Positions 5,803 through 63,016 of a stretch of DNA of 64,000 bases are shown one piece after another. Below the pieces are notes generated by a model that worked only from the letters and a program-made list of their open reading frames with translations, did not search any database and was not told the origin of the DNA. Origin of the DNA: a virus (taxonomy: Duplodnaviria > Caudoviricetes). Where the stretch lies: positions 64,001 to 128,000 of the IMG/VR virus record IMGVR_UViG_3300033066_000778. The stretch is one strand, 5' to 3'. Position 1 is the first letter of the stretch. The number at the start of each line of letters is the position of its first letter. Position numbers and translations under genes: made by a program.

Positions 5803-6134
5803 TAGTTTCTCTTTAAGTTAGCAATGCAGGGCGAAGCCCATTGAAGGAAACAGTCCTCACCGTTAAAGACGTAAACGTCTTTCTGGACCATAACACCATT
5901 TTCTTTAATCTCAATAGTAATACGCCATTCCCTTGCTACGTATGACGGTGTTGTAGAAGGAAATGGCGTTGGTGTTACATACGGAGGATTAGTTGGGACT
6001 GGTGTTTGGTAAATTGGAATAGTTGCTGTAGGTCTTGGGGTTGGCCTAACCGTAGGAACGGGTGTGGGAGCCCTATAGTACTGCCCGTATAAAGGCATCG
6101 TCGCAAGACCTAACAGCAAGACTAATCTCTTCAT
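5802..6134 (-). CDS. Exported Pro/Thr-rich protein
   Basis: Signal peptide MKRLVLLLGLATMPLYG, PT repeats; start refined to 6134. Confidence 0.6.
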   Translation of the reverse strand: MKRLVLLLGLATMPLYGQYYRAPTPVPTVRPTPRPTATIPIYQTPVPTNPPYVTPTPFPSTTPSYVAREWRITIEIKENGVMVQKDVYVFNGEDCFLQWASPCIANLKRN

Positions 6135-6794: not shown

Positions 6795-7306
6795 TTAGGC
6801 CCATGTTGCAAGGGTTGTTTTAACCCAAGTATCTGTTGCAGTACATACGTAAATTGCATCAGCTGTAATACGAATTTCACCTAAAGTCCCGGCTGCTGAT
6901 GCTGATGCTGGCGCGGTATCGAGACTAGAAAAACTTAATCTGCCAACACCATCACACGTATCTATTACGACTCGCCCTGGATTGCCGCCGTTGATACCGG
7001 AAGCGCCACGTATACTAACGTTTCCGCCATTCTCAGCTGTATGTGTATCAATTCCATCGACGGCTGGAGCGGCCTGTATTGTTACGTACCTGTGCCAGAA
7101 ACAGTATCTGGATCGGGTGGAATTTCATAGTTATAGACTACAGTAACATTTAAATCGTCGGCTAAACGAGTTAAGTTTATTTTGTCATATAGTCCTAAGT
7201 AGTAGTTACCACTGATAATCCCTTGTCTTGGGACTTTTACTTCCTTTTGGTAACCGGGAACTATAATTTCGTAGTCGTTGTCGTTTCTAAAAAAAGCTAT
7301 TGCCAT
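6795..7306 (-). pseudogene. Frameshifted decoration/fibre gene (shift near 7085)
   Basis: 74-aa ORF continues in the -1 frame as VTIQAAP...PASASAAGTLGEIRITADAIYVCTATDTWVKTTLATWA* with no start of its own. Confidence 0.7.
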
Positions 7307-32611: not shown

Positions 32612-34456
32612 TTACATTCTACCCGTCCAAAAGTCGAACACGAAACCTCGTCGAACGTATTCGTATGGCATTTTAAAGTAGCCTTTTAATCCCCAATTAG
32701 GCCCCCAAGAATTTCGTACTATCAGGAATCCACCGCCTTTATAGTCTTTGGTTTCTTTATACCCAGTTACGCAATTATGTACTGCTACCCCATTTGCTAC
32801 GTAGGAGTTGTCCTCTTCGACTTCAAAGTTATACACTTTTCCTTGGTAGGGTTCTTTACTTATACTACTTATTTTAGAAACTAAATAACTATCACTATAA
32901 ATACTTTTGTGATTAGTTCTTACTTGTTCTAATTCTTCGTTTGTATTATGTAGGTAAACCATGTAGTTTGGCCTACAGTTTATAGTTTTTCCTTTTATTA
33001 TAGTACTCCTTGCTTTTCGTTTGGTCACTGAAAAAAGTAACCGAAGCCTTTTTAGCATAAAAAGTAGTTGGTCTTTCAATGACTCCTCTGAAGTTGAGAT
33101 TGAGACACCCGTTGGTGTTTTGCACCCATCGGTTTGATACCATCCTGCTACAAAGAACTTTTGAAAAAAAGTAGGCGCGGTTAATATGCTATATGGAATG
33201 TTTTTCTGGTGTGCAACCCCGCAGATCCCACCAACCTTTAGCGCTAACTTAGTGTCGTAACAAACTAAGTTAATATGCTTATCAAAATTGTCGATACCAA
33301 CACTGTTTAAGCTATACTTTTTAAGCAGTTCTTTACACCTGTCTATTAGTTCAGGGTAGTCTTTTCCAAAAGAAAAACGTAATTTCGCACTCTTAACATT
33401 ACTGTTTTTACTATATCTGACAGCTACATTACCATCACCAACATACATTCCGAGCAACTCGAAGAATTCTTTTTCGTATATAACGTCGTCGTCTACTGTA
33501 ACCTCATCGTATATTGGAGAGTATAGTAAGTTACCATGCCGTAATTCTTCTGCTTTGGTCCAACCAATATTTTTTTCGAATGAATTAGTTCTTTTTGTTT
33601 GTACTAGCTTTGTTTGTACCGAATACTTTTTCGTAAAGATTGGGTGATCTCCAGTGACACATAAGTTTTCACCACAGTTATTTTGTATCGTATAAACTTC
33701 TTCGTCTATCTCCCTAGAAGAAAGGGAAAGGACTCGTCTAAACTTTCCGGTGTGCGTTAATACCTCATCTCCAACTTCTACGTCTTCGATAGGAAGAAAT
33801 CCATCTTTTGTTGTAATTGTAGTTCCCGGCAAACAACAAAGAGCGTGACCGCCTAAAGCTTGTTCTGAATTAGCTGGAATTTGAAGTACGCCCTTTTTAG
33901 CCATTTCTTGTGATTCCATATAAGGGAAAACTTCCATTCCTATTACTACGGGGTATCCGTTAGCTATACTATTCTTTAATTCTAGAATGTTTCTTAAAGC
34001 AAAGGTAGAAGGAAGTCTATACTTTTTAGCTTCTTCGATTTCTTCTGGTGAAGGAGCAACTTTAAAGTCCTTGATTATATAAGGATCTCTTTGTTCCGTA
34101 CAAGATCCATATTCTTGAATAACTTGCATTCCTACACGAATCGTCATTCCAGAGTCTTCGTTTATCGTTCCTTCTTGCCTTCGGGCCATATAGTAGTGAA
34201 ACAACCGACTTAATCTAGTTGCGTCACTATTTGTCTTGAGTAGGAGGAATTCCCTTAAACCAGAAACGATAGCATGACTACCACAACTACCCAAAGAAGA
34301 CTGGTTAGTAATAGGAGAACACTGTGAGCTTAAGTCTACAAACTTAGGAAGTTCTTTAATCTGCTTCGTAGCCTGGATCTTGAAGTCAGAAGATACTGTC
34401 CTAGAATGAGAAAGGTTGTAAATACCTTTTGTCGGAACTAATTCACTTTTAGGCAT
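32612..34456 (-). CDS. Papain-family (C1) cysteine peptidase with intein
   Basis: VDL...PI.NQ..LGSC, GGHAL/CVTGY, IVRNSWG.NWG.KGYF.MPY. Confidence 0.92.
   Translation of the reverse strand: MPKSELVPTKGIYNLSHSRTVSSDFKIQATKQIKELPKFVDLSSQCSPITNQSSLGSCGSHAIVSGLREFLLLKTNSDATRLSRLFHYYMARRQEGTINEDSGMTIRVGMQVIQEYGSCTEQRDPYIIKDFKVAPSPEEIEEAKKYRLPSTFALRNILELKNSIANGYPVVIGMEVFPYMESQEMAKKGVLQIPANSEQALGGHALCCLPGTTITTKDGFLPIEDVEVGDEVLTHTGKFRRVLSLSSREIDEEVYTIQNNCGENLCVTGDHPIFTKKYSVQTKLVQTKRTNSFEKNIGWTKAEELRHGNLLYSPIYDEVTVDDDVIYEKEFFELLGMYVGDGNVAVRYSKNSNVKSAKLRFSFGKDYPELIDRCKELLKKYSLNSVGIDNFDKHINLVCYDTKLALKVGGICGVAHQKNIPYSILTAPTFFQKFFVAGWYQTDGCKTPTGVSISTSEESLKDQLLFMLKRLRLLFSVTKRKARSTIIKGKTINCRPNYMVYLHNTNEELEQVRTNHKSIYSDSYLVSKISSISKEPYQGKVYNFEVEEDNSYVANGVAVHNCVTGYKETKDYKGGGFLIVRNSWGPNWGLKGYFKMPYEYVRRGFVFDFWTGRM
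32774..33838 (-). mobile_element. Intein with LAGLIDADG-type endonuclease in C1 peptidase
   Basis: CCLPGT...VTGDHP...GMYVGDG...GWYQTDG...YVANGVAVHN/C. Confidence 0.9.
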
Positions 34457-35529
34457 TATGGTTTAGCTCCTTTCTTTACTGGCCCTGCGGATACGTTTTT
34501 AGCATCGGGGTTGGACCGTACTGCTGCTTTACGCCGTGGTGGTGCTCCTGAAGGTGGCTTATCTGCTTTAGATGACCCGGATTGCACTGGAGTGTCTGTC
34601 GTTACCGTTGGAATACGGTGAATTTTTGCCTCTTTAGCTTCTTCTGGAGATGGATTTTCAATTGGTTCCGGACCAGAAGTTGTTGTTAGATTCGTTAACG
34701 TTGCCCCATTAACGTCCTGTACATTGTGCGCAACAGCTCGCCGTAGCCCTTTAAAAAAGCTGTGCATACTTGGTTCTGGACTTTCTTGACTCTGAGCAGG
34801 GGCAGCGGAAGGTGTCGTAGCTGGTGCCGCTGTAACAGTCGTTTGTGCTTTTGCTGTACCACCTTCCATGGCCTTAGTAGCATCCGCTACTGATTGCGGG
34901 TGCGGTGCAGAAGGAGAAGCCTGTTGCGTCGGTGTAGCAGTGGGAGGATTTGGTGTCTTTGGAGCAGGAGGTTTAGCTGTCTGTGATGGTGATGCAGACG
35001 AGCCCATTTTTAATGTTCCTCTTTGCATCGCAGATCTAAAATCAAAACCAGATGCTGGTGGCTTTGGTGAAGAAGAAGGTGAAGAAGAAGGTGAGGAAGA
35101 AGACCGCCCTGAAACTGGTTTATAACCAGAAGCAGCTTCTTTCTTTAATGCCTCCTCATCTCTAGACGTAGAGATTGGTGCAGAAGCATTCATTACACGA
35201 TCTCTTAGAGGATTAAGGACACTTTTCCTAAACTCAACTGGTTCTTGAGCAATTCGCGCTGTTTCTGTATTAGCCCTATCCTGCCTTTCAAGGTTCTTGG
35301 CTTCTTTTTTATACCCCTTCATTATATCTCCAACATTTTTTTTAGCCGCTCTAACTTGAGGATGATCTATAATGTCGTTATCAATAGCAAAGTTCTTTAC
35401 GCCAACACCAATATTCTTTAAACCAGTAAGAAGTTTATTCCCTGTATTTTTTAATCCTGTTCGAACATTTAGTTCGTTCAGTTCCTGCTGTTCCTGTATT
35501 ACTCTAAATAATGTTTCGTTAAAACTCAT
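34456..35529 (-). CDS. Low-complexity Pro/Ser/Ala-rich protein, probable internal head protein
   Basis: N-terminal IQE/LNE sites; SSSP repeats. Confidence 0.65.
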   Translation of the reverse strand: MSFNETLFRVIQEQQELNELNVRTGLKNTGNKLLTGLKNIGVGVKNFAIDNDIIDHPQVRAAKKNVGDIMKGYKKEAKNLERQDRANTETARIAQEPVEFRKSVLNPLRDRVMNASAPISTSRDEEALKKEAASGYKPVSGRSSSSPSSSPSSSPKPPASGFDFRSAMQRGTLKMGSSASPSQTAKPPAPKTPNPPTATPTQQASPSAPHPQSVADATKAMEGGTAKAQTTVTAAPATTPSAAPAQSQESPEPSMHSFFKGLRRAVAHNVQDVNGATLTNLTTTSGPEPIENPSPEEAKEAKIHRIPTVTTDTPVQSGSSKADKPPSGAPPRRKAAVRSNPDAKNVSAGPVKKGAKP

Positions 35530-37235
35530 TAGGATTTTCCTCTTTTAATTAGGTCACGCGGATTATTAACGGAAGCAATGAGTTCATTGCGTTTTTCCTC
35601 AGGTATACCCCGTTGTGCAAGAACGCGGTGAACATAAGAAAAACTACGCTCATTTTTAAGGGCTCGCCATTCAGCGGCCATACTTTTTCTATCGCCCATT
35701 TTTTCTTCGCGTCTCTTTACGTCAGCTGCCTTGTCTAACTGGACACGAAATGCTTTTGCCGGTTCATCAGACTGTTGAACGGGTCTATCTGCAAAATGCT
35801 TAGCAGCTAGTGAAGCATAAACAGGATCGTGCTTTAATCCTTGCGGGTGCGGTAAGTGAAGACCAGATACATAATCTGAAAGTGTTCTATCCTGGCTATT
35901 TGGGTCTTCTTTTGTCTTTTTTAGAATATGCCGTTCGCCAGTTAAGTACCTATCCGTTAAAAACCGACCTGTTCCTGCTGGATAATGCTCTTCTGGATTA
36001 AACCCTTCAAAATAACGCCTTACTATTTTTACTGCGTGTTCTGGACTCGTTGGTTTCTCACCATACGTAGACTCAATATGCCCTTGTAATTTAGCTGTTG
36101 CTTTTGGATCTCGGAAAGAAGCATTAGCTAGTCTTTCGACGTGATCATAAAAATGCCCTTTTAGCTCTTCATCGTCGTGTAACGTCGCGGCCATATCATG
36201 AAGACCTAAAGACTTAACGGCATGGTCGCGTACCTTAGCAGCTTCCAAAGACGATTCAGTAAATCGCTTCATAAACTTGCGACCGGCTGCCCTTTGTGCT
36301 GATGCTCCTGCTACTCTAGCTCTATACGCTTCAAGTGACCCTAATGACCTTCCGGTTCCTACACCTCTTAATAGTTTAGAGTTAGGATTTTTACCTGCTG
36401 TACCTGCCGTAGCGGAATCTTGTACAGACATAACACCTGTACTGAGTCCTTCTTTACCTCTCGTTAACCCTTCTATCGCTACGTCCTTATCTCCAGTTGT
36501 TCGTACACCAGGACCAGATGCAATAAGGGTTTGACGAGTAGCATGTTGTCTACTACCATGAAGAGCTTCGTCAGCCATACCAAATGCTGTTGAACTTTTC
36601 TTTGGAATTGTTGCTTTTGGTTCAGTTAAGTTAATTACATGCTTAACAACACTACCTAAATGTTCGGTTGGCGACTTAAACATATGTGGATTCATTCTAA
36701 GTGCAGCGCCGTGTGGTGTAACTTCCGTAGAAAAGATTTTTCCGTTAAACGGATGATCATCTGGAAGATCTAATGCGCTAAAATCTACGTGTATTTTCAT
36801 TGGCGGAAGTTTTACTTCGCCTAACGCTTCTACCGTATCGTCAGAAAGTACTTGTTGATTATTCCTGTTGACATACTCATTTGGAATATGCTGTAAAAGT
36901 CGGGTTGCACCACCTGACCATTTATTAGTAGCAGGATCTTTTTTACCCTGCATGTACTGAACCATATGTGACTTAAGTTCTTCTTTAGCGTCCGCGTGTT
37001 GTAATACATGATTAACTACAACACGATGTGGATCTGTACTATGCGCCATTTTTTCCTGTAAAGCAGGAAGATCCTTTAGAATATCAGGATCTGTTGGAAA
37101 GTGAACAAACGTTTGTCCATGAACAAATTTTTGTTCACCTTCACTTAAGAAGATAGAAAAATCCTCGTCTAAGATGTGTTCTCTTAGATAAAGGTTCTCT
37201 TCGTAAAGTTCACTATAAGTATCGAATATGTTCAT
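35529..37235 (-). CDS. His-rich protein, probable internal head protein
   Basis: Acidic leader with LYE/LRE/LSE sites. Confidence 0.65.
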   Translation of the reverse strand: MNIFDTYSELYEENLYLREHILDEDFSIFLSEGEQKFVHGQTFVHFPTDPDILKDLPALQEKMAHSTDPHRVVVNHVLQHADAKEELKSHMVQYMQGKKDPATNKWSGGATRLLQHIPNEYVNRNNQQVLSDDTVEALGEVKLPPMKIHVDFSALDLPDDHPFNGKIFSTEVTPHGAALRMNPHMFKSPTEHLGSVVKHVINLTEPKATIPKKSSTAFGMADEALHGSRQHATRQTLIASGPGVRTTGDKDVAIEGLTRGKEGLSTGVMSVQDSATAGTAGKNPNSKLLRGVGTGRSLGSLEAYRARVAGASAQRAAGRKFMKRFTESSLEAAKVRDHAVKSLGLHDMAATLHDDEELKGHFYDHVERLANASFRDPKATAKLQGHIESTYGEKPTSPEHAVKIVRRYFEGFNPEEHYPAGTGRFLTDRYLTGERHILKKTKEDPNSQDRTLSDYVSGLHLPHPQGLKHDPVYASLAAKHFADRPVQQSDEPAKAFRVQLDKAADVKRREEKMGDRKSMAAEWRALKNERSFSYVHRVLAQRGIPEEKRNELIASVNNPRDLIKRGKS

Positions 37236-37240
37236 TACAC

Positions 37241-37813
37241 TTATTCAGACTTACCGTCACCTTCGTCAGAGTCTTCGGGTTCTTCTGTATCATTTACTTC
37301 TTCACTATCAGCGTCACCTTCTACAAGATAGCTAGCAAGAGCAATTAAAGATTCAGTAATAAACTCTGGGGCATCATCAGCTTCTAGAGCTTCAGTCATA
37401 TTGATTAGGAAATCAATATTATCTGTCGTAGGATTCTCTACGATAGTGACAAGATCCTTAGCTTGCTTCGTATAGCCAACTTCTTCTAATGAGTTGACGA
37501 TATAATCAAGGCTATTTGGATTAGTAAACATATCAGAAAGAGATTCTTCCATTGGGTTTCCGTGCATCATTACGTTATCGCCCTGACCTTCAACAGACTG
37601 ATTCTGTTGGAAGGCAACGGCTTTCTGGTAATCAGCTGAACTTGATTGCATAAAGGGCCATGAAGGACTTCCAAACCATTCGCCAGAAAGCATCTGACGA
37701 GCAGTTCCACCCTTAGCAGTTAAGTCATTATTATCGGGTGTAGTATTGTAAGGACCAGTCGTGAAGGCTTCTTTTAGAATTCTTGTTACGATCTTATCAA
37801 CGTCGATTTTCAT
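37241..37813 (-). CDS. Acidic hypothetical protein, probable head core component
   Basis: N-terminal ILKE; acidic tail. Confidence 0.65.
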   Translation of the reverse strand: MKIDVDKIVTRILKEAFTTGPYNTTPDNNDLTAKGGTARQMLSGEWFGSPSWPFMQSSSADYQKAVAFQQNQSVEGQGDNVMMHGNPMEESLSDMFTNPNSLDYIVNSLEEVGYTKQAKDLVTIVENPTTDNIDFLINMTEALEADDAPEFITESLIALASYLVEGDADSEEVNDTEEPEDSDEGDGKSE

Positions 37814-37823
37814 AGTTATTTCC

Positions 37824-40115
37824 TTATTTATTTTTTCCAGACTTTTGCTGAGCTTGTAATTGTCTGAGTAACTCTAATTTTTTAGAGTCAACTAGTCTTA
37901 ACTTTTGAAGTGGTTTACCTTCACTATCCCGTGGAATTGGTGCTTTTCCAACAGCCCAACCCTGTTTATTTACTTTAGCTTCTGGTGCTCCGGTTCCCAT
38001 ATCCTGTGTTGAGGCTCTATGACGATCATCAACCGTAGTTGGTTCTCTTAAGCTAGTTGGGTAATATTCACCCATACGATCAAGAGAAGAACGACGGGTC
38101 TTTTCCCCTGCGGAAAGCATAATGTTTACTGGATCTCTTTCTTGGGTTAAACCAGGGGTACTTCTAATACTTTGGTTTTGAGGAAGAAGTCCACCAGGAT
38201 TTCTCTGAACACGAGGGTTACCCGCTTTGTCATCGCGTACTTTAGTCTTTTGTCTTACGGCAGATATACCAGAGAACTTTAATGGTCCTTGCTTCCCTAC
38301 TGCTGATGCTTTTAGGAATCCAGTATCAGTAAAAAGACTATCGACTTCAGAAGCAGGCATTTCCGCACTATATTCAAGTGTATGCCCATGATCTAGTGTG
38401 AATGTTCCTTTTGGAGCAGAAATTCCTCTAGCACTATCTTTAGCTGTCATGGTAACAGCCCAAGGAGGAGCGGTTCTTGTTACACCATTTTTATCTACTT
38501 TTACTGAACTACCAATCCAAGGACGAACGTCTGTCGGAGCAGGAGTTTTTCCAGTAACCTGAAGATTAGGAACAAGTTTTCCTTCTTTATCTTTTACAAG
38601 AGGATTTTCAAGATTAACTTGTTTAATATCTTCTCTTGTTCTATTTCCTCTAGGTTCTATTTCTGGGATGTGTGCAACCGAAGCATTTATATCAAAATGC
38701 TCTTGCATCGCGTTATGTGTATCCCTCGCCAACATAGATGAGTTATTCATCTTGGAATGAGGAATTCTAACTTTAACACGAACGCGGCCATTACCTAGAT
38801 CTTCTTGTTCGATAGCATTACGGTGTGTACCATGCGTTGTTCCACCAGCAATCTCGGAAATCGCAGGGCGGCCACTTTCAGTCTTTACCTCAGCTAGTTC
38901 TCTATGGATATTATCTAATGTTTTTTCTTGGTGATCGAGAGCAGCCTTTACAAGTTGCTTAACATTGAAGTCTGTAGACTGTCCCGATCCATGATGCGCA
39001 ACACCTTTACCACCACGAAGGTCAGCACGATAGGTAGCACCAATGTCTTTTTGCGTTGTGCCTGTGTGTTTCTGTGGTGTTATTTTTGGATCTTGTGGAG
39101 GAAGAAATGGCTCTGTAAAATCAGCAAGAGCATTTTCTTTCTTTTTCCCAACGTAAAGAATGCCAGTTTCAGGATGTTGGGCGATCTTCATACCCTTAGA
39201 GTGTAGATGTGTAATTAACTGTCCATGAAGATCACTGACATACTCGTTATGATCAGCGTTACCAGGAATCTCGTGGATCCCATTTTGACGGAGGTAGCCA
39301 CCGATAAGAGATGATTCCTTATGTTGGGATTTAGCACCTAGCTTCGTTGCACCGTTGTAAACGAGACGAAGCACTCTACCGATTTTTGGTGAAAGTGTTT
39401 TGTGATCACCAGAAATAACAGTAGCAAGAGCGTCGGCACTATCGTGTTTATTCTGCTTTCTATACATATCATGGACACGCTCTAACGAATCACCAACCAT
39501 CTGACCCCAGTGTTCGTCATCTCTGATCCCTCCGGCTTTAACAATTTGTCCGGTTAGGTGCCTACGAACAACGTCGGCAAGCTCCTGTTGTTGGGAGTTA
39601 CTTAACGTTTTAGGAGTTTCCTCATCTTCGTTGATTTGCTTGTGAATCCCGCCATAAAGGTAAAGCTCAGAAAGAATAGGGTTACTCTTCTTAACAACAG
39701 GAGTAGCCGCTACTTCATTAGCTTTAAGTTCATCGAGCTTTACTTTTAAGTCTCTAAGCATATCAGCCTTAGACTGCTGTTGAGGAATGACATCTTCTAG
39801 TAAGAAACTAAAGTCATCCATGTTTATAACGCCTTCTTTCTGATCTTGTGAACCTTTTTTCTTTTTCTTCTTTTTCTTTTTATCTTCTTCTGAATTAGCA
39901 TCAGGAGTCGTTAAACCAAGGAACTTACTTTCGTCAGGAAGCTCCTCTTGTGTATGCATTGTCTCATCATCAAAATTAGAACCATCGGCGGCGAGAGGCT
40001 TGTCGTCACTTCCTAGTAGCTTTCCAGTAACGAGGTCTACTTTAGGACCAATGTACTTTTTTGGATTTGTATCAGTCATATCAGCTGTTTCAACTAATAT
40101 ATTGAAAAGGCGCAT
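37824..40115 (-). CDS. Large His/Gly-rich protein, probable internal head protein
   Basis: ILVE, LLE, INE sites; K9G tract shared with protease. Confidence 0.65.
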   Translation of the reverse strand: MRLFNILVETADMTDTNPKKYIGPKVDLVTGKLLGSDDKPLAADGSNFDDETMHTQEELPDESKFLGLTTPDANSEEDKKKKKKKKKGSQDQKEGVINMDDFSFLLEDVIPQQQSKADMLRDLKVKLDELKANEVAATPVVKKSNPILSELYLYGGIHKQINEDEETPKTLSNSQQQELADVVRRHLTGQIVKAGGIRDDEHWGQMVGDSLERVHDMYRKQNKHDSADALATVISGDHKTLSPKIGRVLRLVYNGATKLGAKSQHKESSLIGGYLRQNGIHEIPGNADHNEYVSDLHGQLITHLHSKGMKIAQHPETGILYVGKKKENALADFTEPFLPPQDPKITPQKHTGTTQKDIGATYRADLRGGKGVAHHGSGQSTDFNVKQLVKAALDHQEKTLDNIHRELAEVKTESGRPAISEIAGGTTHGTHRNAIEQEDLGNGRVRVKVRIPHSKMNNSSMLARDTHNAMQEHFDINASVAHIPEIEPRGNRTREDIKQVNLENPLVKDKEGKLVPNLQVTGKTPAPTDVRPWIGSSVKVDKNGVTRTAPPWAVTMTAKDSARGISAPKGTFTLDHGHTLEYSAEMPASEVDSLFTDTGFLKASAVGKQGPLKFSGISAVRQKTKVRDDKAGNPRVQRNPGGLLPQNQSIRSTPGLTQERDPVNIMLSAGEKTRRSSLDRMGEYYPTSLREPTTVDDRHRASTQDMGTGAPEAKVNKQGWAVGKAPIPRDSEGKPLQKLRLVDSKKLELLRQLQAQQKSGKNK

Positions 40116-52916: not shown

Positions 52917-53147
52917 ATGGCCCGTAAGACTGAACAGGAAAAGCGCAATGAAAGGCGGATTGCCAAGGTCCAAGAGCGGGTCATCGCGGCCCGTCGTCTC
53001 TGGTGGAACAAGGATGAAGAGGCAGGAATCTACAGGGAGAAGGGCTTCGTCGCCTACTCCCAACAGTTGAAAAGTGAAGCTGAAAAGCTTTACGAGGCTT
53101 ACCTCGATGAAGAGTCTCGCCTCTATGCCCTGAAGGGGAACAAGTAA
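52917..53147 (+). CDS. Hypothetical protein
   Basis: AGGAG RBS. Confidence 0.8.
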   Translation: MARKTEQEKRNERRIAKVQERVIAARRLWWNKDEEAGIYREKGFVAYSQQLKSEAEKLYEAYLDEESRLYALKGNK

Positions 53148-53218
53148 GGGCATAGGAATCGAACCCGTATCGTCGTCAGTAACAGCATCAAATAACAAAG
53201 TACAAAAAGCAGTCCTTA
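53145..53218 (+). repeat. Stem-enclosed GGAATCGAACC element, copy 1
   Basis: taagggc/gtcctta stem; core 53155-53165. Confidence 0.7.
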
Positions 53219-53229
53219 AGGAGGACAAA

Positions 53230-53613
53230 ATGAACCAGACCAACATCGACACCAACACCGCCGAGGGCTTCATCAACAAGCTGACCGCTCAGGGTCAGTA
53301 CGATTACTTCCGCCTTCACCGCTTCGCCGGTCACAACACCTTCGGGGGAACGCTGATCAAGGTTCAGCGGGGTGTCCCCGAACAGTACAAGGCCAACTTC
53401 CCCGATTGTCAGGACAGGTACTTCCTGTCGATCTGGAAGTACACCGAAGTGGCAGGGAACGTCACCCTCACCACGAGACTGTCGAAGGAGACGATGCACT
53501 TCGACAAGGACACGGCTGTCCTCATGCTCAAGCTGATGGGCCTGAAGTGGGGAGGCATCGTGGCATCGAAGCACAACCCCGTCAACACCCCGAAGGCCAA
53601 CAACAACTTCTAA
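53230..53613 (+). CDS. Hypothetical protein, paralog of 52447
   Basis: AGGAGG RBS; VQRGVP...YFLSIW. Confidence 0.8.
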   Translation: MNQTNIDTNTAEGFINKLTAQGQYDYFRLHRFAGHNTFGGTLIKVQRGVPEQYKANFPDCQDRYFLSIWKYTEVAGNVTLTTRLSKETMHFDKDTAVLMLKLMGLKWGGIVASKHNPVNTPKANNNF

Positions 53614-53626
53614 GTAAGTAGTTTAA

Positions 53627-53657
53627 CGGGGCTTAAGGCTGAAAGGTCTTAGGCCCC
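53627..53657 (+). terminator. Strong GAAA-tetraloop hairpin (terminator or processing site)
   Basis: ggggcttaaggct-gaaa-ggtcttaggcccc. Confidence 0.6.
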
Positions 53658-53689
53658 ATTATTCCTAACAAAAACTAAAGGAGAATAAA

Positions 53690-54331
53690 ATGAGCCGTTC
53701 TTACTCCACCTACAAACGGGATTACGCTTACAAGGTTTCGGACCCTTCGACTCCCGATGTGAAGGTTCGGGAATACTTCATCAAGGACAACGAAGAGAAA
53801 CTGGAACTGTTGGCAAGGAACGAACGGTCTCAGAAGTACAACTACGGGAAACGGGGATCGGCAATCATCAAAAGACAGATTGTCGAAGGTGTCTTGAGGA
53901 AGACAAAGAACGTTCGGGCTGCTTACCGGGCGTTGATCAAGAAGTCTCCGAAACGTATGTGTGCTGAAACAGCATTCGACTGGTTCGGTGTATTGGATAT
54001 GACCCATTGCACGGAACGAATCGAATGGAGACCGAAGTTCTTTGTGGATGGAGAGAACGTTCGTCCTGGTACTGAACTGATCGAGACAGAAGCCCGGAAC
54101 CCCAAGTGGAAGAGCCTGTGGAATTCCAAACCACCAACACCTGAAGAGGAACTCAAGAGAAAGAAAAACGATCTCCTCTTGAGTATCAGGGATAACAAGG
54201 ATTACCTCAGACGGCTCGAATGGAGAAAGGAAACCATCGAGAGGTTCGCCAAGGCAACTGTACAGGAAGCAATCGAAAGGACCAACGAAAAGATTGCTGA
54301 CCTTTACAAGCAACTGAGCAACCTGAAGTAA
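53690..54331 (+). CDS. Hypothetical protein
   Basis: AGGAG RBS; coiled-coil tail. Confidence 0.8.
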   Translation: MSRSYSTYKRDYAYKVSDPSTPDVKVREYFIKDNEEKLELLARNERSQKYNYGKRGSAIIKRQIVEGVLRKTKNVRAAYRALIKKSPKRMCAETAFDWFGVLDMTHCTERIEWRPKFFVDGENVRPGTELIETEARNPKWKSLWNSKPPTPEEELKRKKNDLLLSIRDNKDYLRRLEWRKETIERFAKATVQEAIERTNEKIADLYKQLSNLK

Positions 54332-54377
54332 TGGAAATCCAGCACGGTCAGTGCCGATGCTGGGATGAGGAATAAAG

Positions 54378-54470
54378 ATGATTGAAAAGTCAATCCTCTG
54401 CTTCCTGTGCGTCACAGTATGGATTCTCTTCGTCCGTGACGTCATCAACTTCTACAAGGAGTACAGGTAA
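54378..54470 (+). CDS. 30-aa single-TM peptide (not in track)
   Basis: GAGGA RBS; MIEKSILCFLCVTVWILFVRDVINFYKEYR*; TAATG coupling. Confidence 0.6.
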   Translation: MIEKSILCFLCVTVWILFVRDVINFYKEYR

Positions 54471-54826
54471 TGTTCTTTGATGTCGTTCCCCTCGATGTCA
54501 TGTATCGCCTTGAAGGGCTCTTTGCCCTTGATGAATACAAGTACGAACTAGATCCAGATGAGAAGTATGTTCAACTTGTATGCGATGATGACGTTGCATG
54601 GGAGCCCATTGAGTTTCAATACGTAACCCCAAAAGATCAATGGGATATCATGGGGTTAAGAGAAGCTCAACGGCTCTTTAATGAGCGTGAATACATGAAA
54701 GGATTAAGGATAACACAAGACTATGAGGATTACGGGACTGATGGAAACAGATGGTACTGGCCTGATGATCCACAATTCGATCTTGTAAAGCCAGGTAAGG
54801 AAAGAAGGATGCGTAGGTTTAAGTAA
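54470..54826 (+). CDS. Acidic hypothetical protein
   Basis: AGGAG RBS. Confidence 0.75.
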   Translation: MFFDVVPLDVMYRLEGLFALDEYKYELDPDEKYVQLVCDDDVAWEPIEFQYVTPKDQWDIMGLREAQRLFNEREYMKGLRITQDYEDYGTDGNRWYWPDDPQFDLVKPGKERRMRRFK

Positions 54827-54838
54827 AGTACGACTAAT

Positions 54839-54986
54839 AGGCGGATGGGAATCGAACCTTACGTATCCTTACATGTGCATAAACAGCTATAGCCCCTATG
54901 AAGGGGCTTAAATAGTATACGCACATTAAGAGTGTTTTAACTTTAGTATCTTAGGCTAATGATGTTATCACGGCCACATTCCGTCT
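54839..54986 (+). repeat. Stem-enclosed GGAATCGAACC element, copy 2
   Basis: aggcggatg/cattccgtct; core 54848-54858; nested atgtgc/gcacat and agcccc/ggggct. Confidence 0.7.
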
Positions 54987-55388
54987 TAGATCATTATGCT
55001 TATTTTACTTTAGTTTTAACTGAACTTTAAGTCATTAAGGATTAAGAGGGGCTTCGGGGTTAATGAACGCAATGTCAATGTTCCCGATTAGCTCTTTGAT
55101 CCTAATTACTTTGATTCATCTTCTCTTATGTATAAGTATCTAAGGTTACACATCACGGATTAAATAACATTGAACTTTCAAGTAACATGATTACAAACCT
55201 ATGTCGGCATGCCGACTTAAGGAGGTAATGGATGCATTGGTGTCCATTGGAGACATTGGCCCTTTCAATGCTCTTTAACCACTTTAATATCATTTGGATG
55301 GGCGTAAAGGAGTATATATACGTATTACGGAATAAAATTCTGTAATGACTGTATAGTTACAGTCCTTTCGCCTATCAAAACGAATGGA

Positions 55389-55454
55389 ATTAAAGGATTA
55401 GGGGATTAAAGGATTAGGGGATTAAAGGATTAGGGGATTAAAGGAAGTAAGGGG
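55389..55454 (+). repeat. 16-bp tandem repeat ATTAAAGGATTAGGGG x3 plus one variant
   Basis: 55389, 55405, 55421 exact; 55437-55454 variant ends at ATG. Confidence 0.95.
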
Positions 55455-55682
55455 ATGCGATATACATGGGATTTAACACCGATAGGTAGATGTAACCAAT
55501 ACTTCATATGTAAGGGAAAGGCACGAGAGTTTTCCTTACTGAAGGAGTATAACTACACTGCTTATTTCGTACGCGATTCTGGAGATAGCTACACAACGAC
55601 TGAATTCGGTGATTGGACAGAAGGATGTCTAATCATTACGTTCAAAAACGGAAGGGAAGTAAAGGAGTTAAGCTCATGTTGA
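55455..55682 (+). CDS. Hypothetical protein
   Basis: ORF after repeat. Confidence 0.55.
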   Translation: MRYTWDLTPIGRCNQYFICKGKAREFSLLKEYNYTAYFVRDSGDSYTTTEFGDWTEGCLIITFKNGREVKELSSC

Positions 55683-55984
55683 AGACGATCCTGGTTAACA
55701 ACTTCCAACCAGAAGATCTAAAGAATCAGATTGGTGTCATGAAAGATATGGACATCACTTTGATCTTCAATGTCCGTTCACTTGAAGGGTTGATTCGGGA
55801 GCTTCGTGAGTACTGTGACTGTATGGATAAAGTTCTTCAAGAACATTTGGATGCAGAAAGACCTAACTCTTACTTCATCCCTGGTGGTATAAAGGAATGG
55901 GATGAAAATCAGTATCGAATGAAGCGTGGTGATCCTCCTGATTGGGCTACGAATCCAAACCTTAAGCACATCAAGGAGATCTGA
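55676..55984 (+). CDS. Hypothetical protein
   Basis: AGGAG RBS before MLKT. Confidence 0.7.
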   Translation: MLKTILVNNFQPEDLKNQIGVMKDMDITLIFNVRSLEGLIRELREYCDCMDKVLQEHLDAERPNSYFIPGGIKEWDENQYRMKRGDPPDWATNPNLKHIKEI

Positions 55985-56133
55985 AAATGGAAATCAACCT
56001 TAAGAAGCCTTACTTCAACAAAAGGCGTCCTACCTTTGAGGAATATCTGAATTCTACATTGCTTTCATGGGACTTAACTGGCGTATCTACCAAGAGTACA
56101 TCGAGAAGTAGAAAGGTATAAGGAGTAAAAGAA

Positions 56134-56580
56134 ATGAGTAATGTTCCTTCATACTTCCTTCGTGGTTACTGCAAGGTTGGTCAACTCTTCCAGCCTAAAG
56201 CATCACATCACTCTGCATGGGGGAGTCGGCAGGTATGGGAGATTGTCTCCGTACATGAGGGAGGGAAGGACGGATTGTTTACCCTTCGCCTCTTTGGTGA
56301 TCCTGAAGAGATCTTTAATCCGGACGACGCGGATGCGAAAGACTTTGACAAGTGCGTCCGTGCTTATACTCTGTACACTGCTTACAAGGTAGTGGACAGA
56401 AAGAAGTACGTTGAGGCTATCGCAAAGGTCAATGAGGTGAAAGAGGCAACGGTCAAAGCTAACGTGAAACAGAAAAGAACTGAGTTGATTGAGGAACTGG
56501 AGAAGCAAGCGTACAGTATCCGTTTACTCTCCATCGCATACGAAGAGACAGTTAACAAACTGAAAGGATTGGAGGTATGA
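56134..56580 (+). CDS. Hypothetical protein
   Basis: AGGAG RBS. Confidence 0.8.
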   Translation: MSNVPSYFLRGYCKVGQLFQPKASHHSAWGSRQVWEIVSVHEGGKDGLFTLRLFGDPEEIFNPDDADAKDFDKCVRAYTLYTAYKVVDRKKYVEAIAKVNEVKEATVKANVKQKRTELIEELEKQAYSIRLLSIAYEETVNKLKGLEV

Positions 56581-56581
56581 C

Positions 56582-56854
56582 ATGTGGGGATTGATTGGTA
56601 TCGCTATCCGTTCGGTGGTTGATGCTTTCATTGGTGGTACGGGGGTATCGACTACCGATCGTACCTATCGTGGTAACAACTGTTATCATTGTGGACATGG
56701 ATACATGAAGGTATTCAGTGGTTACAATGGTACATCGTGGTATGCTCTCGTAACCTGTGATCGTTGCGGTCATTCTTCTCCATGCGGTTATGGAAAGAAC
56801 GAAGACGACGCCAAGAGTAACGCAGTCTCTATTTGGAATACAATGGAGGAGTAG
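56582..56854 (+). CDS. Lar-like (restriction alleviation) Zn-finger protein
   Basis: CYHCG...VTCDRCG...AVSIWN. Confidence 0.6.
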   Translation: MWGLIGIAIRSVVDAFIGGTGVSTTDRTYRGNNCYHCGHGYMKVFSGYNGTSWYALVTCDRCGHSSPCGYGKNEDDAKSNAVSIWNTMEE

Positions 56855-56857
56855 ACA

Positions 56858-57091
56858 ATGTTTGTGTTTGATGAAGTTGAAGAAGAGCCCATTGACCCTG
56901 AGAAGTTTAAGCCTGGGTCATTTGGTTGTCATGAACTGTTGGACAGAACGAACTTGATCATCAACATGATTGATAGGGAGATTCTTCAACATCCTTCCTG
57001 TCAAATGAATCCCAAGTGGCTTAAGCTTGCTAACAAAGCGTCTGAAGCCCTTGGTAAGCTGTACGTCGCTGTCGGAACAAAGCATCTGTAA
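56858..57091 (+). CDS. Hypothetical phage protein
   Basis: PGSFGCHELLDRT...HPS. Confidence 0.75.
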   Translation: MFVFDEVEEEPIDPEKFKPGSFGCHELLDRTNLIINMIDREILQHPSCQMNPKWLKLANKASEALGKLYVAVGTKHL

Positions 57092-57123
57092 TAATAACGA
57101 GTAAAGAAAGAAGGAGTAAAGAA

Positions 57124-57561
57124 ATGAAAAAGAATACCCTCACCCGTGCCCAGGCCAAGTACTTCAACGAGAAGCTCACGAGCCTTGAGTATGTCCTCCA
57201 TGATATCAAGACGGGTGGTAAGAAGGTTACCATCCCGGTCAATGAGATCAAGGATGCCATCTTCACAGCATCAACGAAGATCACTCACGATCATGAGCTT
57301 AAGGTTCCGTACACCAAGGATTCATACTGTTTTGGCGCTGGCTATAACATCCATGTTGACCTTACCACGACGCCGACATACAAGAAGGCCCTTGCTGAAG
57401 TACAGGGGAGTAAGGCTACCAAAGAAAGAAACAACATGATTGATACGTACCAGAAGCTGATTGAGGAGTTCAGGCTCAAGCTCATCTTCGGTACTGAAGC
57501 CAACGCCCTCCTCGATGAACTGAACAACCTTACCAACGCCATCAACAAGCTCATGGACTAA
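57124..57561 (+). CDS. Hypothetical protein
   Basis: AGGAG RBS, C-ending codon bias. Confidence 0.8.
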   Translation: MKKNTLTRAQAKYFNEKLTSLEYVLHDIKTGGKKVTIPVNEIKDAIFTASTKITHDHELKVPYTKDSYCFGAGYNIHVDLTTTPTYKKALAEVQGSKATKERNNMIDTYQKLIEEFRLKLIFGTEANALLDELNNLTNAINKLMD

Positions 57562-57571
57562 GGAGTAAAAG

Positions 57572-57829
57572 ATGTACGAGATCAAGAAGGTTGACGACTG
57601 TTCAGGTGACCAACTCGCTTTCGCTGTCAACCATGATAGCATGAAGATCATCGTGGGTAAGTCTGGTCACGCTAAGCTGCTTAACATCGTAGCAGCGGAG
57701 CCGATTGATTACCCAACTGGCGGATGGATCTTTCGCCGGAAGGGACAGATTGCCGACAGTGGAATGTTAAAGAAGGTTAAGCAGGATAGGGAAGAGATCG
57801 TCGAGATGCTTAAGATGATCTTCTGCTAA
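57572..57829 (+). CDS. Hypothetical protein
   Basis: AGGAG RBS. Confidence 0.8.
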   Translation: MYEIKKVDDCSGDQLAFAVNHDSMKIIVGKSGHAKLLNIVAAEPIDYPTGGWIFRRKGQIADSGMLKKVKQDREEIVEMLKMIFC

Positions 57830-57834
57830 TACCT

Positions 57835-57910
57835 TAGCATGGGAATCGAACCTTACGCTTATGTGTACTGTCATTGACTTTACTCTTGAACTACTGTCAT
57901 GCTCGTGCTA
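57835..57910 (+). repeat. Stem-enclosed GGAATCGAACC element, copy 3
   Basis: tagcatg/cgtgcta; core 57842-57852. Confidence 0.7.
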
Positions 57911-57928
57911 TCTGATTAGGGGGAAGTA

Positions 57929-58180
57929 ATGTACAGAATGGAGGTTAAGGTGGGTAACGAAAAGGTTCCTGCCATTCAATTCGTAGAGAACAATAACATC
58001 GACGTTACCAGTATCGTTGGTAAGACGGTGTTGGCTGTAAAGCTCCATAACTCTAACGACTATTGGGGGGATGATGGCTTTACTATCCTCTTCACAGATG
58101 GTAGTATCATGACTGTTGGTGCATCCGATGACTGCGGATTTCCAATGGTGAGTACTGCTGTAAAAGAAAGAGGAGATTAA
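57929..58180 (+). CDS. Hypothetical protein
   Basis: IVGKTVLAV...ILFTDGS. Confidence 0.75.
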   Translation: MYRMEVKVGNEKVPAIQFVENNNIDVTSIVGKTVLAVKLHNSNDYWGDDGFTILFTDGSIMTVGASDDCGFPMVSTAVKERGD

Positions 58181-58399
58181 ATGTGGACCTTCTTTATATC
58201 ATGGAATCGTCACCGATTTGTTTTCGCCCCTTTTTCAGGTGAACTAATCCTCGTCCTGAATTTTGGGGGATTGCAGATTGGTTGGATGAGGATGGACTTA
58301 GAGTATTACCTTGACAACCTCGCTCTATCAATTGAGGAGGAGATAACTGAACGCCTTACCAAAGAAAAGAAAGAGGAGGAAGAAGACAATGTTGGATAA
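58181..58399 (+). CDS. Hypothetical protein
   Basis: AGGAG RBS. Confidence 0.65.
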   Translation: MWTFFISWNRHRFVFAPFSGELILVLNFGGLQIGWMRMDLEYYLDNLALSIEEEITERLTKEKKEEEEDNVG

Positions 58400-58563
58400 C
58401 ATGATAATTAACGGTGATAAGATCTTGAAAGGAATGGAAGAAGATCTGATCACATTTCAAGCTGAACTTCTCGGAAGAGAGTTTAACACCATGTTAGCGG
58501 AGATGCTTAAGACCGAAGAAGCATACTCTGAACTGGTTGAGAAGATTGGAGAGGAGAAATAAG

Positions 58564-59028
58564 ATGTACGGATTTCCTACTTGGTCAGCAGATCAGAAGA
58601 AACTCCTGGTTGTCGTTGCTGAGGATAAGCTTTCCGATGCAGTCAAGCAGTGGGAAACGCTTCCTTATGACTTCGTCAGCTGCATGAAGATCGCAAAGAC
58701 ATTGGTTACTTGTGTAGATGAACGCATCGCACAAGATATCTGTACCGTTTTTGGTGCAGAGAAGAAGCCTTGCCCTGAATGTCCTCCTGATCTGAACACT
58801 TGGATCATCAGTTTCTCCACCGACCAAGACTTCTGTGAGTACCTGTCAATGAGCAACATGGCTAACGTCATCTACCTGAATGGTACTTCAGTCTTTAACG
58901 TGTCATTCGATGCGATGGCACGTAAGACAATTGAGAAACTTAAGCTCATTGACGATGGTGAGGTTAAGCACGAAGAGAAACCTATAGATGACGATGCGTG
59001 GCTAAAAGATCTTGGCATCGTATCGTAA
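58564..59028 (+). CDS. Hypothetical protein
   Basis: AGGAG RBS before MYGF. Confidence 0.75.
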   Translation: MYGFPTWSADQKKLLVVVAEDKLSDAVKQWETLPYDFVSCMKIAKTLVTCVDERIAQDICTVFGAEKKPCPECPPDLNTWIISFSTDQDFCEYLSMSNMANVIYLNGTSVFNVSFDAMARKTIEKLKLIDDGEVKHEEKPIDDDAWLKDLGIVS

Positions 59029-59177
59029 AAAGAAATGAGGAAAAGAATATAAGAAACAGTACAAAAGAATCCTACAAGCAACTGATAACACAGTAGTTAA
59101 TAACATTACTACATTACATCGTAACTAACATAATCCAAGAACAGTATAAGAAACGAACAGGCAAGAAGGAGCCTAAG

Positions 59178-59423
59178 ATGATTAAGTTTATCGTCAAGAG
59201 TTTGCACAACATTTCTGAATTCCTCCTCTGGAGATCAATCGACATCAGCGAACTCTCAATGAAGATTGACGAGTACTTCAAGGAGGATGAAGATGGAAGT
59301 ACCACCGATAACGTTGAAAGCAATTGTGCGGAGGAACGATCCACTCCGTCCAGAACGAAGAACATTGACTATAAGAGCCTTAGAGAAAACAACCATCCGG
59401 ATAAGTCCGGTTACATCAACTGA
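59178..59423 (+). CDS. Hypothetical protein
   Basis: AGGAG RBS. Confidence 0.6.
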   Translation: MIKFIVKSLHNISEFLLWRSIDISELSMKIDEYFKEDEDGSTTDNVESNCAEERSTPSRTKNIDYKSLRENNHPDKSGYIN

Positions 59424-59433
59424 AGAACCTCCT

Positions 59434-59757
59434 ATGACAATTCGTACGGAGTTTAATGAAGACGATAGCATCGACAGTGCAAGTCTTCAAACAATCATGG
59501 ATGCTAAGAAAGTCTTTCTTGGTAACATCCATGGTTATGCACTGACGAAGAGGGGACAGAACGATAACCATGTTCTAGTAACTCTCCTTAGCTATGATAA
59601 TGATCATTGGAGAGTGAAAAACGGTATGGTTGTGTACTCCACAAGTTGGATCCAAGAAGAGATTGCTTTGTTACAGGCAATCGAAACTTGGTGTGAACAA
59701 AACTGTGAACCTGATACCGTCTATGATGGCAAACAATACGGATGGGAGTTTAAATGA
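59434..59757 (+). CDS. Hypothetical protein
   Basis: C-terminal part of track ORF 59266; ATGA coupling. Confidence 0.65.
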   Translation: MTIRTEFNEDDSIDSASLQTIMDAKKVFLGNIHGYALTKRGQNDNHVLVTLLSYDNDHWRVKNGMVVYSTSWIQEEIALLQAIETWCEQNCEPDTVYDGKQYGWEFK

Positions 59758-60068
59758 AGGCATTCGCTAGACAACGCTTCTATGACATCCATCGTGGAGA
59801 AGGGTGTACTACGCGTGAGTACCTTGGTACATTAACGTGTACAACATTCGGACATGTGGATGAGTTCTATAAGTGTACATGTAATGACCAAATTTCAGTA
59901 ATTACCTTTCGAAAGAACGAATGCATCGTAGTTTTCTCTAGGCATGGATCTAACGTTGATCTCTTTGATCGTTTCTTCGATAGATTCCAACGATTCAAGC
60001 ACCTAGGGACATACCAAGCCGTAATAGAACAAATGATGGAGGAAAACAAGCGTGCAGATCAAGCTTGA
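59754..60068 (+). CDS. Hypothetical protein
   Basis: Coupled ORF. Confidence 0.65.
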   Translation: MKAFARQRFYDIHRGEGCTTREYLGTLTCTTFGHVDEFYKCTCNDQISVITFRKNECIVVFSRHGSNVDLFDRFFDRFQRFKHLGTYQAVIEQMMEENKRADQA

Positions 60069-60330
60069 AAACTTCAATAACTGTCCTGGCTATAAGGTAG
60101 CTAAGGACATCGCAGGAAGTAAAGCCTTGATGGTTGAGGATCTTCCTGACCTTGAGTACTGGCAGAACGATGAAGCAACACTTGTACTTTCAATCAATCT
60201 GAATACCACGAGGCTTAACATGACGGATGCTTTCACAAAAGTTATTGGTCTCATCTCAAGGTATAGACCAGATGAAGTCCATAGCCATCCGAAAGGTAAT
60301 CAACTCTTCTACCGCCTGTGGTGGGATTAA
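60052..60330 (+). CDS. Hypothetical protein (C-terminal RLWWD motif)
   Basis: GGAGG RBS; RPDEV...YRLWWD. Confidence 0.7.
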   Translation: MQIKLENFNNCPGYKVAKDIAGSKALMVEDLPDLEYWQNDEATLVLSINLNTTRLNMTDAFTKVIGLISRYRPDEVHSHPKGNQLFYRLWWD

Positions 60331-60340
60331 GGAGAAAGAA

Positions 60341-60574
60341 ATGGACACATACATCTACACGCCACAAAACGGAAAGCTTACAAGAGTAACAGCACCAATT
60401 GAACGATACTTTATATTGTTCTACGAGAATGATGCTGATATCTCAGATCCTCAAGTAGCATTTAAATTAGCACAGAAAAGCTTTTATACTGCTGGTGCTT
60501 TCTCCTCTCTTATTGATGAAGCACTGATGAACGATCACATCGTCGTCATCAGAAAGTTAGCTGTAACACCGTAG
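60341..60574 (+). CDS. Hypothetical protein
   Basis: AGGAG RBS before MDTY. Confidence 0.7.
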   Translation: MDTYIYTPQNGKLTRVTAPIERYFILFYENDADISDPQVAFKLAQKSFYTAGAFSSLIDEALMNDHIVVIRKLAVTP

Positions 60575-60580
60575 AAGATA

Positions 60581-60757
60581 ATGCTAACGTGTAACAAAAA
60601 CGAATACGATAAACTTCAAGAAGACATTCTCTACTTCATACGGACTATGGCAACAGACTTCGATCATTATGAAGATGCACATAAGTACCGTACACTTTGT
60701 TACGTGTGTGAAGCAGAAGAATTAAATCGTAAACTTGAAATCAAATTCATAGACTAA
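60581..60757 (+). CDS. 58-aa hypothetical protein (not in track)
   Basis: MLTCNKNEYDKLQEDILYF...KFID*. Confidence 0.5.
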   Translation: MLTCNKNEYDKLQEDILYFIRTMATDFDHYEDAHKYRTLCYVCEAEELNRKLEIKFID

Positions 60758-60856
60758 CATGGGAATCGAACCTTAACATTATTTACATAAACATAGGAGT
60801 ACGCTTAAAGCATACAATCCTCCCAACGTCCGAAGTAAAATTGAAAGTGAGCATGT
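60757..60856 (+). repeat. GGAATCGAACC element, copy 4
   Basis: Core 60762-60772; short acatg/catgt closing stem. Confidence 0.6.
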
Positions 60857-62953: not shown

Positions 62954-63016
62954 TCTCTAAGTAAACGAGGGGGTTAATTAGAAATAGTTAACCCCCTCTT
63001 TCCTATCAAGGAGTAT

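Follow-up and report, generated by a model that had tools for sequence, protein, structure and literature searches.

A repeated, lineage-specific sequence signal at gene boundaries in the early region of a group of uncultivated large phages

What reads a short sequence that keeps returning just behind stop codons in the early genes of a phage? The question is raised by GGAATCGAACC, an 11-nucleotide (nt) core that recurs in a 64,000-nt stretch of DNA (the window), which comprises bases 64001-128000 of a 153,958-bp phage record in IMG/VR (IMGVR_UViG_3300033066_000778; completeness estimate 83%). A first-pass annotation of the window had left the choice between a repeated RNA module and a protein-binding DNA site. 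Our analysis bears out the repeated cis element and favours a sequence read by a protein, whereas the RNA fold, the mimicry of a tRNA T-loop and the pairing with a phage RNA were not supported. Judged from its sequence, the motif is most likely a defined signal that is read by a protein rather than as an RNA fold, and that would control early or middle gene expression.

The core is found exactly, and each time on the + strand, at window positions 53155, 54848, 57842 and 60762, as had been annotated, and the motif around it starts 1-18 nt after a TAA stop codon (ending at 53147, 54826, 57829 and 60757, respectively). The four copies, together with the gene that follows the first, are:

53152-53166, + strand: motif copy 1, ATAGGAATCGAACCC, starting 4 nt past the TAA at 53145-53147 and ending 64 nt before the ATG at 53231
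53230-53613: gene after copy 1, which is then followed by a hairpin at 53628-53657
54845-54859, + strand: motif copy 2, ATGGGAATCGAACCT, starting 18 nt past the TAA at 54824-54826 and heading a non-coding stretch of ~400-630 nt
57839-57853, + strand: motif copy 3, ATGGGAATCGAACCT, starting 9 nt past the TAA at 57827-57829, with the next start codon ~80-100 nt further on
60759-60773, + strand: motif copy 4, ATGGGAATCGAACCT, starting 1 nt past the TAA at 60755-60757, ~125 nt before the ATG at 60899

Copy 4 stands at the head of a block that contains an AAA ATPase gene and lies ~1 kb upstream of that gene. The consensus of the copies in this phage is ATRGGAATCGAACCY, with an invariant stretch AT[GA]GGAATCGAACC followed by C or T, which agrees with the consensus drawn up earlier.

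The recurrence of this sequence is well above chance. A scan of the window for GGAATCGAACC with one mismatch allowed gave 7 matches where shuffled sequences predict 0.95, and none of 100 shuffles reached 7. Across the whole genome (154 kb), the core occurs six times on the + strand and not once as its reverse complement on the − strand, and it is the most over-represented 11-mer once low-complexity words are set aside. The scan of the remaining genome that the annotation had suggested thus added two exact copies (genome positions 131091 and 140715) and one variant with a single mismatch, GGCATCGAACC (the GGC variant), which lies within the SNF2 helicase gene at genome position 134720; its extension to relatives uncovered further versions of the motif. 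All seven copies in this phage fall between 117 and 141 kb, that is, in the rightward early/middle block and in the 650 nt that open the leftward block after it, and all are on the same strand, even where the direction of the genes flips. In the whole-genome scan, the leftward structural genes carried no copy. When flanks of 1.1 kb were compared pairwise, the only part in common was the motif block of 11-19 nt. The GGAATCGAACC sites are a real, selected and repeated cis element of the early region.

Related phages were reached via homologues of the AAA ATPase (identity 82% and 43-55%), and their contigs retain the gene order AAA, DUF2201, DUF932, SNF2. They carry the motif in versions that differ by lineage (TGnGGGCATCGAACC, GTGGTAATCGAACC), such that each genome has one main variant and the variant changes from lineage to lineage. 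The forms assigned to individual contigs are:

L036: TTGGGAATCGAACCC
L037, L045, L046 and L042: TGnGGGCATCGAACC
L044: (G)TGGTAATCGAACC

Invariant in all of them is the core ATCGAACC, of which the relatives' loci hold 22 forward-strand copies against ~1 expected, and against 2 for the reversed word as a control. The signal that is shared across the clade can be written as (T)TGnGGG[C/A]ATCGAACC[Y], ~15-16 nt, which in this phage is ATRGGAATCGAACCY. An alignment of 29 instances contains information only at positions -6 to +8 around ATCGAACC, and neither this alignment nor the comparison of flanks revealed a second conserved block. The positions of the motif turn over with gene cassettes, as seen between this phage and L036. 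One relative (L039) shows a further copy that is masked by Ns in L037, and another (L041) has none.

DNA identical to this contig is contained in the Logan sets SRR32380195 and SRR32380193. Outside this clade the motif was not detected. More distant IMG/VR relatives, aligned through the AAA protein at an identity of at most 43%, lacked it, and an apparent match in one further contig (L233) proved to be a genuine tRNA array. IMG/VR scans with exact 16- and 17-mer patterns gave only single chance matches, matches to a 14-base variant were overwhelmingly numerous, with real tRNA genes presumably accounting for them, and a megablast search of cultured phages retrieved nothing close. Searches of IMG/VR with single proteins of the locus gave no relatives, and a neighbouring protein of 213 amino acids had no homologues. 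The phages that share the motif are large and uncultivated. As far as we could find, the motif family and its distribution are undescribed, and its function is unproven.

With respect to placement, 24 of 28 copies are co-oriented with the local genes, including 7/7 of those that lie inside genes. Almost every copy in the ~40% GC lineages lies between genes, its first base 0-18 nt past a stop codon, and in some relatives the entire gap between this stop codon and the next ribosome-binding site measures only 24-34 nt. Both L037 and L045 have the motif in the short gaps at the AAA-DUF2201 as well as the DUF2201-DUF932 junction, 3-11 nt before the Shine-Dalgarno sequence. L037 has a copy ahead of several successive genes, and also a unit in which the motif is followed, after ~85 nt, by an intrinsic terminator (6810-6833). 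Furthermore, a + strand tRNA-Ile(UAU) gene is preceded by a copy at a distance of 6 nt in L037 and 16 nt in L045.

The seven copies inside genes come from the AT-rich L042 and L044 and from the SNF2 gene of this phage, and the genes concerned include SNF2, a dCMP deaminase and the CCA-adding enzyme. This phage and L044 both have the SNF2 copy, at a near-homologous codon within a part of the protein that varies. All three reading frames are used, and hence the motif acts at the level of the nucleotides, not of the code. A mini open reading frame (ORF) 'MGIEP' was considered as well and rejected: the codon before GGN is ATG, ATA, TTG, TCG, GCG, GAG or GTG, such that it is not a start signal. Four perfect copies are oriented against the local genes, all of them intergenic:

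Genome position 140715 of this phage: between two leftward genes
L037, position 13560
L037, position 17995: in a gap of 24 nt
L045, position 9048

That perfect copies occur in this orientation in intergenic gaps suggests that it is the double-stranded DNA that is read.

The annotation had described each core as enclosed by a stem whose sequence differs from copy to copy. These stems are present as written, yet they do not exceed what chance provides. We searched for pairing, with G-U allowed, between the 14 nt upstream of each core and the region 20-140 nt downstream, and used 3000 random positions of the same region as a control. The best pairing at the six copies comprised 5-9 pairs, with a mean that is marginally high (p ~0.05), and stems of at least 7 pairs were found at 44% of the random positions. 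Folding z-scores of the intergenic regions ranged from -0.98 to +1.48, and most of the claimed stems were missing from the minimum-energy folds. Since the stems are at chance level, the z-scores are unremarkable and the 24-34 nt gaps of the relatives leave no space for such a structure, a stem-enclosed architecture is not supported. No covariation was seen across the motif copies and related phages, and Rfam, queried at E<=5, returned no tRNA, ribozyme or riboswitch at any copy, here or in the relatives. A structured RNA element was accordingly rejected, as it fails both the test of folding against shuffles and that of a closing stem beyond chance. So was a trans-acting partner RNA of the phage: the best non-self duplexes were no better than those of shuffled motifs. 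An integron attC-like cassette site was also discarded, as the genome contains no reverse complement of the core and there is no second conserved block. A contiguous stretch of 15-16 nt that is conserved without covariation is the signature of a site that is read by a protein.

How, then, is the resemblance to tRNA to be understood? The core is indeed the exact complement of the canonical tRNA T-arm 11-mer, and the earlier statement that no cloverleaf forms was borne out by ARAGORN and the Rfam tRNA model. ARAGORN, at its normal threshold, placed nine real tRNAs at 29-31 kb but made no call at the motif; with relaxed settings it made 101 calls (92 beyond the nine real tRNAs), one of which overlapped one of the six copies. 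T-stem pairing around the 7-nt 'loop' averaged 2.57 of 5 Watson-Crick pairs over 28 copies, as compared to 4.47 of 5 (4.89 with G-U) for the T-arms (n=19) of the true tRNA array in L233. Only the copy at genome position 140715 (140712-140726) makes a perfect T-arm-like hairpin, GATGGG/CCCATC. In the relatives the likeness is weaker: GGTTCGATGCC is still T-arm-like, GGTTCGATTAC is not, and the variant GGTAATCGAACC of L044 disrupts the G53-C61 pair. The annotation had named a score as decayed tRNA genes as speaking against its proposal, and the copies do not score in this way; with 2.6 of 5 T-stem pairs and no match by ARAGORN or the Rfam model, the T-loop mimic falls along with the decayed tRNA. 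A tRNA gene or pseudogene was rejected by the finder and covariance-model test and by the requirement of a paired T-stem.

We therefore assign next to no probability to the sites being decayed tRNA genes, or a stem-enclosed RNA module that acts by pairing with the tRNA T-loop or by mimicry of it. The exact complementarity to the T-arm 11-mer and the one perfect hairpin are what speak for it. However, the T-stems of a real array are far better paired (4.5-4.9 of 5), ARAGORN and Rfam miss the copies in this phage and in its relatives, GGTAATCGAACC breaks G53-C61, and fourteen invariant bases amid unrelated flanks are unlike decay, while the module variant meets the chance-level stems and the lack of room described above. 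The tRNA relic and the T-loop module are largely refuted. The resemblance may be a coincidence, or it may be the trace of an origin from proteins that read T-arms. It is distinctly improbable, though worth spelling out, that a tRNA T-arm sequence has been turned into a regulatory signal, whether by a reader that descends from a protein able to recognise T-arms (SegB-like or a tRNA enzyme) and marks gene boundaries, or by a sense RNA that is complementary to the T-arm of host tRNAs or their fragments. If this were true, the T-arm-derived signal would constitute a new link from tRNA sequence to the control of phage gene expression.

For a site read by a protein, the reading that we put forward tentatively, with a probability somewhat short of even, is a compact, phage-specific promoter consisting of a single block. 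We infer both the protein reader and transcription initiation as its output. The reader would most probably be encoded or modified by the phage, and the motif would form part of a rightward early/middle expression module. The transcription start would lie at the 3′ end of the block or within that end (at about GAACC), which would place new 5′ ends directly past the stop codon of the preceding gene, and the few anti-oriented copies would give rise to antisense transcripts. The features that mark a promoter set are present: a contiguous block in multiple copies, co-oriented and with lineage-specific variants. A start inside the block fits every context in which the motif was found, namely gaps of 14-20 nt that hold a Shine-Dalgarno sequence, leaders of 6-16 nt before tRNA-Ile, and the motif-terminator unit of L037. 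Density and layout likewise resemble those of phage-specific promoter sets: in L037 several successive genes are each preceded by a copy, and in this phage a single gene separates copy 1 from the hairpin at 53628.

Several findings weigh against a promoter. No cognate RNA polymerase or sigma factor was found in this 83%-complete genome, which is rich in unannotated ORFs: PF00940 and PF04542 (Sigma70_r2) had no match, an NADFDGD motif was absent, PF04545 and PF08281 gave only weak helix-turn-helix matches in the likely small terminase, and annotation of the large ORFs recognised no such polymerase. The block itself is GC-rich and lacks a conserved AT-rich melting segment; neither a -10 nor a -35 element accompanies it at constant spacing, and TANNNT is not enriched downstream. 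Moreover, ordinary sigma-70-like promoters are already present ahead of the AAA gene in relatives, and in L037 and L045 others lie 40-100 nt upstream of the motif and tRNA-Ile pairs, which means that the motif can sit inside transcripts. About 15% of the copies point against the genes, in which they differ from known promoter sets. Finally, the copies at every junction of AAA, DUF2201 and DUF932 in L037 and L045 look at least equally like sites that separate cistrons.

Other kinds of promoter and operator were considered and rejected. A sigma-70-type promoter is not supported at any copy of the window, where no consensus -35/-10 pair with a spacing of 16-18 nt is found and no upstream block is enriched. 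Inspection by eye revealed no matching second element for a sigma-54, ECF, SigB or SigH-like reading, and no palindromic partner for CGAAC as one half of a LexA (Cheo) box.

The post-stop position that the motif favours is in this phage also used by terminator-like hairpins:

53628-53657, + strand: terminator-like hairpin directly past a stop codon, the next gene following too closely for a promoter to fit in between
62967-62998, + strand: terminator-like hairpin of 32 nt, GC-rich, GAGGGGGTTAATTAGAAATAGTTAACCCCCTC (or nearly so), at the AAA-to-DUF2201 junction
65371-65402 in window numbering, past the window end (genome 129371-129402; L009 1371-1402): recurrence of the 32-nt hairpin at the junction of the 344-amino-acid gene and DUF932

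Both copies of the 32-nt hairpin, ~2.4 kb apart, directly follow a stop codon, and the distance to the next gene is again too short for a promoter. The junctions at which L037 and L045 have the motif, AAA-DUF2201 and DUF2201-DUF932, thus carry a hairpin in this phage.

These positions bear on an RNA-level signal at cistron boundaries, for which a sequence-specific endoribonuclease or RNA-binding protein, of phage or host, would recognise the motif on the sense transcript and bind or cut it, such that cistrons are separated or stabilised. We regard it as possible, though unlikely. It would account for the 24 of 28 copies that point with transcription, for the location between stop codon and next Shine-Dalgarno sequence at the successive AAA, DUF2201 and DUF932 junctions of L037 and L045, for the slot shared with the hairpins, and for motifs in leaders downstream of sigma-70-like promoters and directly ahead of tRNA-Ile; a GC-rich block without a melting region is no obstacle to it, and the clade possesses RNA repair and processing functions (RtcB in L041, the CCA-adding enzyme in L044). 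However, the four perfect anti-oriented intergenic copies would present a different RNA, the seven copies inside genes would be self-destructive if cut, there is neither RNA structure nor a guide RNA, and we know of no endoribonuclease with a specificity of ~15 nt. Another reading, a site for the control of transcription elongation like ops, nut or boxA, where a factor loads onto RNA polymerase for read-through of internal hairpin terminators, strikes us as very improbable. In keeping with such a site, the motif is one directional, GC-rich block of 12-16 nt, can be located in leaders as well as within genes, and in L037 and L045 comes after sigma-70-like promoters. In addition, the hairpins at 53628 and 62967 and two beyond the window leave no room for promoters, so that read-through is needed, and motif copies precede them. 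The sequence, however, is unlike the consensus of boxA or ops, the analysis identified no NusG- or N-like factor, copies are far denser than loading sites usually are, and the anti-oriented copies go unexplained.

The anti-oriented copies in the relatives fit a reading of double-stranded DNA, and among such readings the motif also has to be weighed as the place where a site-specific nuclease or nickase, or a recombination function, acts, be it as the target of a T-arm-reading homing endonuclease like SegB of phage T4 or as a set of strand-specific nick sites. The complement of the core, GGTTCGATTCC, fits GGTTCRANTCC, the essential element of the SegB site (PMC2330249). In L046, 6 nt separate the end of a free-standing gene of the Endonuclease_7 family from a motif copy, another such gene lies beside tRNA genes in L037, and 7/7 copies in this genome are on one strand despite the flips in gene direction. 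Yet a selfish endonuclease would leave unexplained why the motif is retained at orthologous junctions, is homogeneous within a genome, is restricted to one module and is biased in orientation. The commonest variant of the relatives, GGTTCGATGCC, departs from the SegB core, the remainder of the 27-bp site is not conserved, GIY-YIG and Endonuclease_7 genes were not found in this genome, and classical nick sets are confined to one strand, whereas copies in the relatives occur on both. A nuclease target is improbable on balance, and the compact promoter is the reading that we prefer, tentatively.

The surroundings of the motif offer some observations of their own. Free-standing endonuclease genes (Endonuclease_7 family, PDDEXK_5) adjoin motif copies or tRNA genes in three relatives (L046 6027-6428, − strand, beside the motif copy at 6007-6021; L037 1189-1608, − strand; L045 475-900), a placement like that of the homing endonuclease genes of T4-type phages. 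In four relatives the AAA ATPase gene is closely preceded by a good, retained sigma-70-type promoter, TTGAC[A/T] and, after 17 nt, TATACT, TACGAT, TAAACT or TAACCT; the corresponding 70-nt gap in this phage has none:

L037, 9947-9975
L045, 4582-4610
L046, 6757-6785
L041, ~6606-6634

After motif copy 2, ~630 nt (window 54827-55460) hold no convincing gene. This stretch contains a strong hairpin at ~54868-54930 and four tandem 16-nt repeats, ggattaaaggattagg, at 55391-55445, and the near-identical strain L034 differs in it by a 24-nt gap; judging from its sequence, an origin or iteron region is conceivable, as is a small RNA locus. In L037, two structured-looking elements of ~80 nt (..ctgacaa[a/c]gcttcggctaaatca..gaaaccggggaatcaa..), at ~8330-8410 and ~13430-13510, are intergenic, adjoin motif copies and have no Rfam match.

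Further away, on the − strand of the window (34456-40115), four consecutive large genes of 357, 568, 190 and 763 amino acids have no Pfam or PHROG match; the proteins of 568 and 763 amino acids have no sequence match in the PDB, and the latter has no usable match in the ESM Atlas. The DNA polymerase (genome 12549-16085, L010, − strand) belongs to family A and carries an N-terminal uracil-DNA glycosylase domain as well as an intein with an HNH module. The combination of a family A polymerase with a T4-like capsid is an unusual mix of modules.

For uncultivated phages of 150-170 kb with a T4-like capsid and a family A DNA polymerase, the motif provides a handle on the layout of gene expression. 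Hardly any early gene of the clade has an annotation, and none of these phages has yielded a recognisable transcription factor. A lineage-specific signal of 15 nt points to a phage-encoded reader that co-evolves with it, for which the motif may be used as bait. The signal also marks units of transcription or processing that can guide the annotation of related metagenomic contigs. The exact match to the T-arm, along with the precedent of SegB, raises the question whether the resemblance is functional.

In this context, it is instructive to place the motif beside known systems. The homing endonuclease SegB of phage T4 has a 27-bp site whose essential element, GGTTCRANTCC, is a T-arm sequence, and the sites of this enzyme are located within genuine tRNA genes and frequently carry CCAR at their 3′ end (PMC2330249). 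The complement of the core in this phage fits this element exactly, whereas GGTTCGATGCC (L037, L042, L045, L046) and GGTTCGATTAC (L044) do not match it. Unlike SegB sites, the motif sites are not tRNA genes, they are conserved over ~15 nt, and no GIY-YIG gene was found in this genome.

The promoter-early stem-loop (PeSL) cassettes of T4-type phages consist of a sigma-70 promoter and a stem-loop. The motif is likewise a repeated intergenic element among small early genes that turns over with gene cassettes, but it has neither the sigma-70 promoter nor the stem-loop. The RNase III sites between the early genes of phage T7 are double-stranded hairpins that are cut by the host enzyme; like them, the motif occurs once per junction in successive parts of an early operon, directly past stop codons, though it offers sequence only and no structure.

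Single-block promoter sets are known from T7, T3 and SP6 as well as from the late promoter of T4, TATAAATA, which is read by gp55. The motif differs from them in that no polymerase or sigma gene was found to go with it, in being GC-rich without a melting segment, and in the ~15% of copies that are anti-oriented. What it has in common with these sets is a contiguous block in several to many co-oriented copies per genome, between or inside genes, that varies between lineages around an invariant core and coexists with early promoters of the sigma-70 type.

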